Shown: positions 12,295 through 56,700, counted from the first letter of the stretch. The stretch is 64,000 bases of DNA from Raillietiella orientalis (GCA_036172245.1 JAYWIR010000019.1:3472001-3536000), one strand, 5' to 3'. The notes: a model not told the origin generated them from the sequence alone. A program made the numbers and translations.

Positions 12295-12935
12295 GTGAAA
12301 ATCCTTCTGGGTCTTTCCTTTTCTCGCTGCTTTCCCCCCCCAGTTTGTGGTTCGCCAAGTGCTGAAGAATAGTTCATCTCCTTAGGGAGAGGTCACAAGG
12401 CACTGGCCACGCCGCCCGAGGGTTTGTGCAACTCTTAAAGTTGTAGGGGACCACCCCGGAAGGACTACTCTATGAATTCGGGAATGTTCTGGAGAAAAGA
12501 GTCCGTTCCTCTCACCCTTGGGAGGAAACCCCGAAGGGAACCTCTCGCTTATTTTCTCCGAAGGGACCCCTGGAACAGGTTTCTTTTCATTTTTTCTCCG
12601 AAGGATCCCGGAAAGGATCCATTCCTGGAATTTCTTCACCGGAGGGAACCCGCAAGGGAACCTTTCCCTCTTTCCTCCTCCTCCGAAGAGAACTCCGAAG
12701 GGACGCTTCCCAATTTTCTCTGAAAGGTCGCTTTTGAAGGGATCAGTGCGCTTCGCACCCTGGAGATACGAATTCCCGAGGGGTGCACCAACCAGCTCCA
12801 TGGTACGGATCCAGTTTCTTAGCCTCGACGGCAACCGGCGTTCCTTGATTCCTGGAAGGACACCAGAGGGTCAACTTGCAGTGCCGGCCATTCGAGGGGA
12901 GACCCGGTTTCCAGTTTCTATCAATGCTTCATCCG
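12295..12935 (-). mobile_element. Body and 3' part of the tRNA-headed SINE-like repeat (head at 14012-14172)
   Basis: Reverse complement aligns by eye with ~58690-59400. Contains repeated 'ccgaagggaacc'-like subunits. Confidence 0.65.
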
Positions 12936-14011
12936 CCTCTCGAAAGGTAGTGCCTGGCTGCAGAAAGCCATTCGTACGTGGGCAAGAATCCAGGAACCAT
13001 GCGCGGAACAGGTGCGACGTTTCCTGTACGCGTGCAACAGCAACTGCATGTTCCAGGAGATCCTGGAAGCTCCAGCGAAGAGTGCGTGAGCAAGCAGAAC
13101 CTCCCTTGCCGTCTCACTGCCCTTCCTTAAGGAGCACATGGACAACAACCTTGAGGCTAGATGGAAGGTTACTGTGGGAACCTCCGGAAGCAGAAAAGGA
13201 CTGGACGAGTGGACGACGAGTGAACTCACCGACGCTGCGACCCCGAGTGCTCAGCCTCGCAAACTGTTGCGCTGGGGCGTGTTACTGGGTATTCTGGAGG
13301 AAGACCTGCAGTGGCCGCCGATGCTCATGAACATCCGCATTCTCCCCTGAAAGTGGCAGGGGTCGGCATTGATGCTCCCGTGCTGCAACGCCTGCAGGTA
13401 TCATTGGACACGAGGGAAGGGGGTAGACCCAAACTGTGCAAGGTACCTCCTAGTGGACTGTTTTCTCCTCCAGACCTTTTGGGGACGCTCTGCTCAGACC
13501 CTTGGATGTCTTGGCAACGGCAGAGACAATTGAAATCGTTTCTTCCTGCACGACGCCCTCACGACGGCCGCATCCCTAGCAGCACTTTGCTGCATACGCG
13601 GGATAGTGGCTGCATGGAGCAGCAACGCGAGTCCAGGACCACAGGAACGCCATTTATTCTGCTGTCCTCTTTATGAGAATAGCGTCAAGATGGTCCCGTC
13701 TGGGAGTTTTGAAAAAGGAACTTGACGTTATCCTTACAAGGATGCGGAGGACGCCCTTCAGCACACAATGATCCCTTCCCTAACCCCCTCTCCCATTTTT
13801 TTGAGTATATGTTTTTTGTTTTTTGTTTTATTTTTTTTCCTTTTTTGTCCCCCTTCCCCAGTGCTGCCGAGGCGAACCCCGCTGGCCCGTATGACAGTTC
13901 CCGGCAGGTTCCTTCTCGTAGCTATAAGTAACGTCGTGGGATCGGACGTCTTGCCATAGACATGTATGTTTATTTTTTATAAATAAACGCTCCGGCGTGA
14001 CCGGATGTCAA
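12936..14011 (+). mobile_element. 5'-truncated Tx1-like element inserted in the SINE-like repeat
   Basis: 'EWTTSELTDAATPS..LLRWGVLLGILEEDLQWPP' matches the other copies. Ends in the family terminus 'aaataaacgctccggcgtgaccggatgtcaa'. Confidence 0.85.
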
Positions 14012-14172
14012 CCATTGCCTCACTTGAAGCCCATAGGCCAACCGGCGCCATCTGCGAGGGGATCGGAACCCTCGACGGATCCCCCATCCAAGGCGTCGAT
14101 CCTTCCTCGGGTGGGAATTCGAACCTGCGACGCTTGATACCACGCGCAGAGTCCAGGCCTCCAGCGTGGACC
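14012..14172 (-). mobile_element. tRNA-derived head of the SINE-like repeat
   Basis: Minus strand carries a B-box-like 'caggttcgaattccc'. Homologous to 26887-26968, 56551-56700 and 58528-58700. Confidence 0.7.
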
Positions 14173-14439
14173 TCAGGTAATTTAAGACATGATGATCCTC
14201 TTCTTTGGAAGAACAGAGATTGAAACAACTGATCTCGGAAGTGAAAAATAGAAAATTAGAATGCAGTCTGCATATATCTTGAAAGTCCAGTCTCAAGTCA
14301 CGTGAGATTCATATTATGCTATTTCGTTTCTTTCCCATGAAATTCCTGCACCGACTCGGGACAGTTTGCTGAATTCAATGCAGGTGTTGATCTGCCCTGG
14401 GGGCAGCGAGCGTAGTAGGCGGAAATTATACAGCCAATT

Positions 14440-54000: not shown

Positions 54001-54012
54001 CAAGGCGGTCGA

Positions 54013-54513
54013 TTTTCACCCGGATTTCTCCGGGTCGTTTATTTAAAAATAAACTTTATGAAAAAGATGTCATTGGCTGTAGCAATGCTCCAGCCACGAG
54101 CGAAGAACCACGTAGCCTGTCAGGTCACCGGTTCGCAGACCGGTACGGTCCACCAAGGCAGCAGGGGAGGGAGGAAAAACAAAAAACTAAACAAAAAGAA
54201 AAAAAAAGAGTGGGAGGGTACGGGAAGGGATCACTGTTGCTGCTGGGGCCGCATCATCCTTCTCAGGATGCCGGCAAGCTCTTGCTGTATTTGAGGATCC
54301 AGGTGGGGCCATCGCGACGCCCTCCTCAGGAATTGGGAGGCGCACTGGATGGCATCCTGATCGCTTGGTCCTCCCGTAGCCGTGCTCCATGCGGCGACGA
54401 TCCCGCGAAGGCAGTAGAAGGCTGCTATCGAGGCCGCTGGCCGAGGGGCGTCGGCAACGAAGAGGGCTTTTAAGGCGTCCTTGGGGTTGCCGCAGGGGAT
54501 TCCGATGGACAAG
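54013..54513 (-). mobile_element. Second, 0.5-kb 5'-truncated copy of the same Tx1 subfamily
   Basis: 3'UTR nearly identical to 50920-51290. Bounded by caaggcggtcga at 54001-54012 and 54514-54525. Confidence 0.9.
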
Positions 54514-56550
54514 CAAGGCGGTCGACTGCGTCGATCAGGAGCTTCTTCTGGAGCTGTTGGAATGCTTGGACTTTTTGGCTGCATTGTCAACCTATCTGTG
54601 CTCCACGCGCTCATCAATATCTCTTTCAGAGGGCAGACGGTGCGGTGCGGGATACGGCAGGGCAACAGCCTCAGCTTCTTGCTCCTTAGCACCTATTTCG
54701 AATTGGTGCTGAGAGCATACGGGAGGACTCTGGCTCTCCAACAGCGCGTATGTCCCGGCACACCTGCCGTCTCAGAATATGAGAACGATCTTTTGTTGCT
54801 GCTCCCCATGTCCACCCCAGCATGCGCACTCAACGGCTTTTTCAAGTTGCTCTGCCGCGGGACGGTTTCGCTGGTGAACAGAGCAAAGTCGTGCGTGGTT
54901 CCATTTGGTGCGTCATGGGCAGGGAGGCCATGCTGAATCCACCTAAGGATCCCCACGGGCCTGTGCTTAAAGTACCTAGGCGTTATAATGCGGGACTTCT
55001 GCTCCGCAGAAGCACCCTGTTCTGACCGTCTTTAGAAAGCACTGCAGACGTTCGGCCCGTTCTAAAGATGCAAATTTTACCTGACGGAATGAGCCGTGGT
55101 GTGGAACACATTCGTAACTTCCTCCTCTGCCCCCTACTTCTTGTTTTCCTCCTGCCATGTGTCATCGGAAACCGGACGAAGAACCTCCTCTGGATCGTCC
55201 TTTGGAGCAATGGGGAGCCCCGAGTCCTCCTGAAGGACTTGTGTGCATCGCGCCGGGACGGCTGTCTGGGCCTCTTGACGCTGGAGCAAATGGAGCTGCA
55301 GGTCCAATTTTCTTGTCCTCGTGACAAACCTGGTGCCAACCTACAAGTTTTTTCCTCCAGAAAACCACCAGCAGCGTGGGACTCGCATTCTTCCTTGCGC
55401 GCCCTTCACGCAGTCTCATCCACTGCGGACTGCACTTTCGGCAAGAGGCCATGCAGGCCAGGAAGAACGGATGGATCTCGTGCCACCCCGTGAACAGTGG
55501 TGCCTCGTTGCAGAAAACCGTTCGCATGAGCTGGAAGATGCAGGAGTCAAGCGCAGAACAGATGTGACGTTTCCTGTACGCGCATAACAACCGCATCTTC
55601 CGGGAGATCCTGGAAGATCCCGCGAAGAGTGCGTGGACAAGCAGAATCTCCCTTGCCGTCGCACTGCCCTTCCTTAAGGAGCACATGAGCAACAGCCTTG
55701 AGGCTAGATGGAAGGTTACTGTGGGAACCTCCGGAAGCAGAAAAGGACTGGACGAGTGGACGACGAGTGAACTCACCGACGCTGCGACCCCGAGTGCTCA
55801 GCCTCGCAAACTGTTGCGCTGGGGCGTGTTACTGGGTATTCTGGAGGAAGACCTGCAGTGGCCGCCGATGCTCATGAACATCCGCATTCTCCCCTGAAAG
55901 TGGCAGGGGTCGGCATTGATGCTCCCGTGCTGCAACGCCTGCAGGTATCATTGGACACGAGGGAAGGGGGTAGACCCAAACTGTGCAAGGTACCTCCTAG
56001 TGGACTGTTTTCTCCTCCAGACCTTTTGGGGACGCTCTGCTCAGACCCTTGGATGTCTTGGCAACGGCAGAGACAATTGAAATCGTTTCTTCCTGCACGA
56101 CGCCCTCACGCCGGCCGCATCCCTAGCAGCACTTTGCTGCATACGCGGGATAGTGGCTGCATGGAGCAGCAACGCGAGTCCAGGACCACAGGAACGCCAT
56201 TTATTCTGCTGTCCTCTTTATGAGAATAGCGTCAAGATGGTCCCGTCTGGGAGTTTTGAAAAAGGAACTTGACGTTATCCTTACAAGGATGCGGAGGACG
56301 CCCTTCAGCACACAATGATCCCTTCCCGAACCCCCTCTCCTATTTTTTTGAGTATATGTTTTTTGTTTTATTTTTTTCCTTTTTTGTCCCCCTTCCCCAG
56401 TGCCGCCGAGGCGAACCCCGCTGGCCCGTATGACAGTTCCCGGCAGGTTCCTTCTCGTAGCTATAAGTAACGTCGTGGGATCGAACGTCTTGCCATAGAC
56501 ATATATGTTTATTTTTTATAAATAAACGCCACGGCGTAACCGGGTGTCAA
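54514..56550 (+). mobile_element. Tx1-like ORF2, 3' part (continues 49591-50919)
   Basis: Resumes at 'KAVDCVDQELLLELL', then 'GIRQG', a decayed YADD ('EYEND') and the C-terminal region. Ends 'aaataaacgccacggcgtaaccgggtgtcaa'. Confidence 0.88.
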
Positions 56551-56700
56551 CCAGTGTCTCATCTGAAGCCCATAAGGCAACCGGCGTCATCCTGCGGAGG
56601 GACTTGAAACCCACGACTCACCCCCCATTCTCGGCTTTGATCCTACCGCGGGGGGGGATTCGAACCTGCGTCGCTTGGTGCCACGCGCGGAGATCGTAGG
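56551..56700 (-). mobile_element. tRNA-derived head of the SINE-like repeat
   Basis: Minus strand has 'gcaggttcgaatccc' and a second B-box-like 'gtttcaagtccc'. Confidence 0.7.

Follow-up and report, generated by a model that had tools for sequence, protein, structure and literature searches.

Three copies of a long interspersed nuclear element (LINE) join the same nucleotide of a short interspersed nuclear element (SINE) in a 64-kb stretch of Raillietiella orientalis DNA (GCA_036172245.1, JAYWIR010000019.1:3472001-3536000; the whole stretch of 64,000 nucleotides is here called the window, with positions counted from its first letter). The window is eukaryotic and dense in nested retroposons, among which self-BLAST, alignment and a scan for a 3′ end motif gave at least eight copies of one LINE family in several subfamilies. 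One subfamily, here LINE-A, is rather probably a poly(A)-less, L1-superfamily-like LINE that inserts sequence-specifically at one site of the SINE.

The 3′ ends of the three LINE-A copies are at 14011, 56550 and, on the minus strand, 28657 (loci 1, 2 and 3, respectively), and antisense SINE sequence follows directly after each. The junction letters are tcaa|ccattg at 14011/14012 and tcaa|ccagtg at 56550/56551, with the reverse complement at 28657/28656. With every SINE piece aligned to an uninterrupted reference copy, S0 (58520-59400), S0 position 178 (..CACTG) is the last position of the SINE head at all three occupied loci; the matching tails begin at 164-167. The break point is uncertain by at most ~2 nt: with ..CA(C/T)|CAGTG in the SINE and ..CAAC|CAGTG at the junction, an A and a C are assignable to either LINE or SINE. 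By motif scan and self-BLAST there are three 3′ ends of the LINE-A type in the window, and all three are at S0 178 in the same orientation. A short SINE segment is duplicated at the far end of each insertion (Table 1). It is single in S0 (58684-58697), where nothing is inserted, and the site ..CCGGTGCAGCACTG^ATG at 58684-58697/58698 is therefore empty in that copy. A profile search (nhmmer) gave four SINE heads and four tails in the window. Three of the four SINE copies are occupied, provided that tail 45191-45335 and head 56551-56705 belong together as locus 2, a pairing that is probable since these are the sole unpaired tail and head in the window and both are antisense. That three ends should fall on one nucleotide by chance is impossible, and shared descent of the junction is the sole mimic of targeting.

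An initial annotation of the same DNA had put the junctions where direct reading and the alignment to S0 now put them, and every coordinate checked is correct. Its other structural observations also stand: SINE sequence duplicated at the far ends (10-14 nt at each locus, imperfectly, with 9/14 at locus 1), three different architectures (a truncated copy of 1.07 kb, an inverted one and a chimeric one), an empty site in the copy at 58528-59400, whose segment is single and uninterrupted, and a common start in open reading frame 2 (ORF2) for two of the copies, here placed at 12936 and 28733.

The ends themselves have a distinctive form. Copies of the LINE family have in common an ORF2 stop within TGATCCCTTCC, a T-rich 3′ untranslated region (UTR) and absence of poly(A), and their 3′ ends conform to AATAAA(C/T)(G/A)-N16-17-TG-NNAA. 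The terminal letters vary with the subfamily, being TGTCAA in LINE-A (three copies), TGAAAA in LINE-B and LINE-C, TGATAA(AC) in LINE-D and TGACAA in LINE-F. The LINE-A terminus is AATAAACG-N16-TGTCAA without poly(A), while LINE-B ends ..GGGTGAAAAT and LINE-C ..GGGTGAAAA. A consensus fold of seven LINE 3′ ends gave just a 4-bp hairpin (-2.1 kcal/mol, two pairs with one compensatory change each), which is too weak for a recognition stem-loop to be claimed, and a metagenome scan with the pattern of the LINE-A type of 3′ end gave no match.

The LINE parts are younger than the SINE copies that host them. Loci 1 and 2 are 93-96% identical overall across LINE and SINE (BLAST and alignment), the 96% of their LINE parts being inflated by a near-identical tract. 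Windowed identity is 85-86% over 12941-13200, 99-100% from 13201 to 13937 against the corresponding stretch of 55750-56476 (729 positions align, with 5 mismatches and one 8-nt indel; 300 nt are at 100%, and deletions of 18 and 24 nt are common to both copies) and 92% over the terminal 74 nt of the LINE. The adjoining SINE heads give 86% (first 49 nt), 70% and 84% by successive thirds, and beyond them the two loci are unrelated (60% identity, as for random sequence). As identity to either side is only 85-92%, the tract is probably the outcome of ectopic gene conversion between copies 43 kb apart, and the divergence test was therefore run without it. For loci 1 and 2, divergence is 12.4% in the LINE and 23.0% in the SINE (Fisher p 9e-4 at all sites, 1e-3 at non-CpG sites); for loci 1 and 3 the values are 13.4% and 27.7% (p 4e-6 and 1e-5), and for loci 2 and 3, 13.5% and 24.2% (p 3e-4 and 3e-3). 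Divergence of the host SINE is about double that of the LINE in 3/3 pairs; LINE-A therefore came into SINE copies that were by then distinct from one another. With the conversion tract set aside, the LINE-A copies are equidistant (83-85% over 12941-13200), a star and not a nested set. Independence is also favored by the three different 5′ structures (truncated, inverted and chimeric), by unrelated flanks and by host SINEs of both long and short form. The two SINE forms are not airtight proof of at least two insertions, as one origin in a long-form copy with a single loss of the extension also fits.

Several observations weigh against independent, targeted insertion. The sample is three copies in one 64-kb window, and occupancy of 3/4 SINE copies is high for a multicopy target. 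The near-identical tract means that the loci exchange sequence, and if further copies elsewhere in the genome also acted as conversion donors, the apparent age of the LINE parts could be too low. The duplications differ at 10 of 38 positions, a mild excess over the ~5 expected from the ~13% divergence of the LINE parts (the duplicated segment is CpG-rich); to that divergence the greater part of the imperfection is attributed. One LINE nucleotide, in the ..PANGSAWLQ codons, is the starting point both of locus 1 and of the inverted piece at locus 3. No window ORF searched has a Pfam match to the endonuclease domain (PF03372), and there is no significant detection of it.

The shared start, the homogenized tract of ~740 nt with its two common deletions, and the high occupancy all suit a reading that is unlikely: a single ancestral LINE-A insertion, after which the composite of SINE and LINE was copied as a unit (e.g. 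by retrotransposition of a SINE transcript) and later rearranged, with conversion keeping the LINE parts alike. To these can be added that the SINE heads of loci 1 and 2 are the closest pair (76%) and that the duplications at those loci are 64-71% identical, near the identity of SINE to SINE. Copying of a unit predicts equal divergence of its parts, however, and the SINE shows about twice that of the LINE in all three pairs. Locus 2, with more than 3 kb of LINE and with foreign RNAs, and locus 3, with its inversion, are not copies of the 1.07-kb form; the relation among the LINE copies, once the conversion tract is set aside, is a star; the host SINEs are long and short, with one long-form copy empty; and a SINE transcript of 2-11 kb with an antisense LINE would be an unlikely template for retrotransposition. 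The shared start could have another cause than descent. An inverted repeat, GCGAACGG..N20..CCGTTCGC, is present at the PANGSAWLQETVR codons of ORF2, a few nt 3′ of the start, with folds of -33 and -28 kcal/mol in two better-preserved copies, C and D, and weaker ones (-17 to -20 kcal/mol) in the decayed LINE-A copies, and the start could mark the 5′ end of the RNA or a stop of the reverse transcriptase (RT) beside this hairpin. The warning in the initial annotation that one composite might have been copied whole is thus made sharper by the common start of loci 1 and 3 and by the tract common to loci 1 and 2, and is disfavored by the divergence of SINE and LINE. Its proposal of a SINE-targeting retrotransposon is the best supported, by junctions (3/3), divergence, structures and the empty site, with independence resting on three copies.

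Less probable still is placement guided by homology, in which LINE-A RNA that reads through into the SINE anneals to other SINE copies, or LINE-bearing SINE alleles spread by ectopic gene conversion. Conversion between loci 1 and 2 is evident, SINE identity between them peaks beside the junction (86%, then 70%), and a 3′ end lacking poly(A) needs another way of priming. Conversion would, however, transfer the same LINE structure, and the structures differ; the SINE at locus 3 has no raised identity to the others (63-69%), and the duplications point to staggered cleavage. An assembly artefact (one locus collapsed or duplicated) might be suggested by the 100% identity of loci 1 and 2 over 300 nt but is very improbable: the loci differ in flanks, SINE parts, 5′ structures and the 5′ regions of the LINE (86% over 12941-13200), and locus 3 has diverged by 13% throughout.

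For sequence-specific insertion by LINE-A the following course may be envisaged. We infer that targeting is by the LINE-A endonuclease, which would nick the sense strand of the SINE just after ..GCGGCACTG (within ~2 nt). The freed 3′-OH would prime reverse transcription at the very terminus of the RNA (AAUAAACG-N16-UGUCAA), and hence no A-tail would be copied; a cut of the second strand 10-14 bp away would then lead to duplication of the SINE segment. The 5′ ends would vary as in integration of the L1 type, with simple truncation at locus 1 (the 1.07-kb form perhaps ending at the 5′ end of the RNA, or at an RT stop beside the hairpin of the sister copies), inversion by twin priming at locus 3, and at locus 2 serial template switching onto an RNA of no assigned identity, 28S rRNA and SF1 mRNA.

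Copy 1, a simple truncation, carries frameshifts. At locus 3 the inverted piece has its counterpart in 12936-~13650 of copy 1, and between the two pieces ~290 nt are missing, a layout that looks like a product of twin priming. Locus 2 is a chimera of ~11 kb made up of an SF1 retrocopy, a 28S fragment, LINE-A copy 2 and a nested pair of LINE-C copies. Its foreign chain (45336-49590) has the orientation of the LINE and consists of the SF1 copy, the 28S fragment and ~1.5 kb without assigned identity, and we infer a single integration in which the template was switched serially. The nearest proteins to the SF1 retrocopy are those of arthropods (the best match is a mayfly protein), from which the host is probably an arthropod. 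The 5′ end of the retrocopy adjoins the SINE duplication at 45335/45336, with GCCATTTTG at that edge. This sequence had prompted the idea of a dinoflagellate host, but a search for a spliced-leader-like motif gave no match at up to three mismatches, and the SF1 copy favors an arthropod instead. No poly(A) is seen at the junction of SF1 and 28S. The LINE sequence of copy 2 may extend back to about 49600 (GDFN and SDH are discerned by eye only), and its two halves are separated by the two tandem LINE-C copies. Twin priming and template switching are known from L1; the gap of ~290 nt beside the inversion and the three or more templates in series are larger than is usually described for it.

Table 1. 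Retroposon parts, target duplications and associated features at the three LINE-A loci (positions in the window)
Feature	Position	Strand	Basis or remark
SINE S1, 3′ part (long form, S0 ~165-805)	12354..12935	-	BLAST to S0 67% over 601 nt; local alignment; nhmmer tail 12934-12798
LINE-A copy 1 (locus 1)	12936..14011	+	5′-truncated, ~1.07 kb; ORF2 C-terminal region from ..GSAWLQ codons, and 3′ UTR
SINE S1, 5′ part (head), to S0 178	14012..14171	-	S0 alignment, nhmmer
Target duplication, locus 1	12922-12935 vs 14013-14026		9/14 identical
SINE S3 head, ~4-91	26885..26968	+	severed from remaining head by LINE-B insert
LINE-B insert at SINE S3 positions 83-91, sense	26969..28562	+	flanked by GGATCGACT at 26960-26968 and 28563-28571
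SINE S3 head, ~83-178	28563..28656	+	S0 alignment, nhmmer
LINE-A copy 3 (locus 3), sense 3′ terminal ~70 nt (..TGTCAA)	28657..28727	-	adjoins SINE
LINE-A copy 3, inverted upstream piece, ~740 nt	28730..29472	+	BLAST 81%, 12941-13624 vs 28730-29446
SINE S3 tail (short form)	29473..29606	+	S0 alignment, nhmmer
Target duplication, locus 3	28647-28656 vs 29475-29484		9/10 identical
SINE tail, short form, ending at target segment; probable far end of locus 2	45191..45335	-	S0 alignment, nhmmer
SF1/BBP mRNA copy, intronless, decayed	45336..47135	+	Pfam SF1-HH, KH, zinc knuckle; arthropod SF1 homologues
Large-subunit (28S) rRNA fragment, 903 nt, sense	47196..48098	+	Rfam LSU_rRNA_eukarya 482 bits
LINE-A copy 2 (locus 2), upstream ORF2 (N-terminal to RT through RT motif KAVD)	50195..50919	+	73% to P0002 residues 46-109, E 4e-28
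LINE-C and C′ tandem pair in LINE-A copy 2	50920..54513	-	LINE-C 50920-53999; C′ 54013-~54509
LINE-A copy 2, downstream ORF2 and 3′ UTR, ..TGTCAA	54514..56550	+	65% to P0002 residues 264-374, E 1e-35
SINE head, locus 2, to S0 178	56551..56705	-	S0 alignment, nhmmer
Target duplication, locus 2	45322-45335 vs 56552-56565		10/14 identical
Inverted repeat near shared start	12936-12990; 51955-52010(-); 10605-10660(-)

The kind of LINE was approached with a Pfam run on the translations of 191 ORFs from the LINE-bearing regions and their surroundings. RVT_1 is above the cut-off (40.4 bits) at 52602-53144(-), and zf-RVT matches at 9597-10418(-) and 51141-51632(-) reach 23.8 and 20.3 bits, below the cut-off of 27.5. 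A C..C..H..C pattern is visible, and the order found is an RT with a Cys/His zinc-binding domain C-terminal to it. The alignment of a GDFN motif to a relative has an E of 1.5. Against PDB the RT piece matches R2Bm (2e-12) and human L1 ORF2p (8e-12) equally. The nearest database protein is P0002 (72% identity), whose full-length relatives, at most 30% identical and from ticks, lizards, frogs, plants and fungi, in most listed cases carry an APE-type endonuclease (PF03372), RT and zf-RVT. A metagenome protein scan with P0002 gave seven loci, all distant (22-61% over short segments), which did not include the contig of P0002 itself and were left out of the comparison, and the ESM Atlas gave generic RT clusters only. 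Upstream of the RT in LINE-C, at 53460-53880(-), are two CX2CX4HX4C motifs with a sub-threshold AIR2-like knuckle (Pfam, E 8e-4), which suggests a remnant of ORF1. An ORF1 with CCHC zinc knuckles is a feature of the Tx1 clade and the L1 superfamily. As judged from such resemblances, the data support LINE-A as an L1-superfamily-like element, with the Tx1 clade label unproven.

The SINE occurs in a short form of ~300 nt and a long form of ~850 nt. S1 is of the long form, as is the empty S0, with which it is homologous up to position ~805; S3 and the 45191 tail are of the short form, which ends ..GGGAAAA(T/A) near position 300. Pairwise identity among the four copies is 55-76%. The description of the SINE as tRNA-headed, part of the initial annotation, gained no support: ARAGORN gave no tRNA gene in the window, Rfam gave no tRNA at E<=1 in the two of four heads searched (those of S0 and locus 2), and a box-B-like GGTTCGAATCC is the only tRNA-like feature visible, an old and decayed tRNA origin of the head being possible. 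Short-form copies end ..CCGGTTGGGAAAAT (45191-45210) or ..CCGGCTGGGAAAAA (29590-29606), by eye like the ..CCGGGTGAAAA(T) end of LINE-B and LINE-C, and this likeness hints at the subfamily that mobilizes the SINE. At 37815-37890 a LINE 3′ UTR (copy G) without its terminal ~130 nt is joined to SINE-like sequence in sense orientation. SINE positions ~100-178 resemble 37821-37887 in this fusion (nhmmer E 0.003), and the similarity to the SINE ends near the LINE-A target position.

LINE-B and LINE-C are also at defined sites with clean duplications, and this was counted in favor of targeting by LINE-A. The LINE-B insert is in the same SINE copy that hosts LINE-A copy 3 and has an exact 9-nt duplication, GGATCGACT; its 5′ edge is marked by a T20 run, and a LINE piece at ~27990-28186 is inverted. 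Of the LINE-C pair within LINE-A copy 2, C′ is 5′-truncated and 94% identical to the 3′ 511 nt of LINE-C. The 12-nt target CAAGGCGGTCGA, which codes for K-A-V-D of RT motif A (by eye, against KAFD of P0002), occurs three times (50908-19, 54001-12 and 54514-25), which suggests repeated use of a regenerated target site; LINE-C's own equivalent differs at 3/12 positions. G-N-TCGACTGC is common to the LINE-B and LINE-C targets, with one locus for each, and this shared motif is only a lead. A broader proposal is tentative and doubtful, namely that one LINE family has split into subfamilies, each homing to its own fixed site inside relatives of the family: LINE-A to SINE 178 in antisense, LINE-B to SINE 83-91 in sense, and LINE-C to the RT motif A codons of LINE-A. 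If it were true, LINE-C would cut a competitor's reverse transcriptase gene and regenerate the site for tandem re-insertion, and target specificity in this LINE family would evolve fast and be employed between retroposon lineages.

Elsewhere in the window, a tandem repeat array is present at 20809-21539 (in self-BLAST, 89-96% identity at offsets in multiples of ~41 nt). Full-length matches to snRNAs, two to U4 and one to U6, are at 42799-42941(+), 49988-50127(-) and 60383-60487(-), with 61, 59 and 88 bits in Rfam, and one of the U4 matches is antisense within the region of LINE-A copy 2. None of the LINE 3′ ends in the window adjoins these U4 and U6 matches.

Sequence-specific LINEs are natural systems of site-directed integration and models for the roles of endonuclease and RNA in target choice. 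If close subfamilies use different exact sites within retroposons, they would form a compact natural series for mapping what re-aims integration. Retroposons would then offer each other safe places to land, or be disabled by each other; should the pattern be limited to the window, it is an ordinary nest of old repeats. The novelty is the SINE as target, the targeting behavior itself being already known. A full-text literature search found no report of a SINE as a Tx1 target, with other matches covered by listing and abstract only.

Excerpts of Kojima 2015 (PMC4494074), where target specificity is taken to mean more than 20% of flanks at the target, describe Tx1-clade LINEs with fixed insertion positions in other transposons and in multicopy genes. 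The transposon targets given there are piggyBac for Tx1D, Mariner-N4_AMi at ~240 or ~830, Harbinger at ~300 and LTR retrotransposons, and the further targets are U2, U5, 5S and microsatellites (PMC4494074). Tx1L of Xenopus laevis and the crocodilian Tx1-Mar, Tx1-9_AMi and Tx1-8_Crp are like LINE-A in occupying a fixed position in another interspersed repeat, with related families differing in target. LINE-A differs from them in having a SINE as its target, and LINE-C in having an RT-coding motif of a LINE. Keno, Mutsu, Kibi and Koshi (U2 snRNA, 5S rRNA and microsatellites), as they appear in the same excerpts (PMC4494074), resemble LINE-A in being sequence-specific LINEs of the L1 group on multicopy targets, but theirs are host genes or simple repeats, whereas that of LINE-A is a retroposon apparently related to its own LINE family.

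In the architecture of single copies the parallels are with L1. Its 5′ inversions by twin priming resemble locus 3 in having a sense 3′ piece and an inverted upstream piece, and its chimeric retrocopies (e.g. U6-L1) resemble locus 2, where a 5′-truncated LINE is preceded by same-orientation pieces of cellular RNA within one pair of duplications. R2 and R1, specific for rDNA, share with the present LINE family insertion at an exact site, no reliance on poly(A), and tandem or repeated use of one site. R2, however, has a restriction-like endonuclease and no zf-RVT, in contrast to the APE-type endonuclease and zf-RVT of the distant full-length relatives of the family described here.

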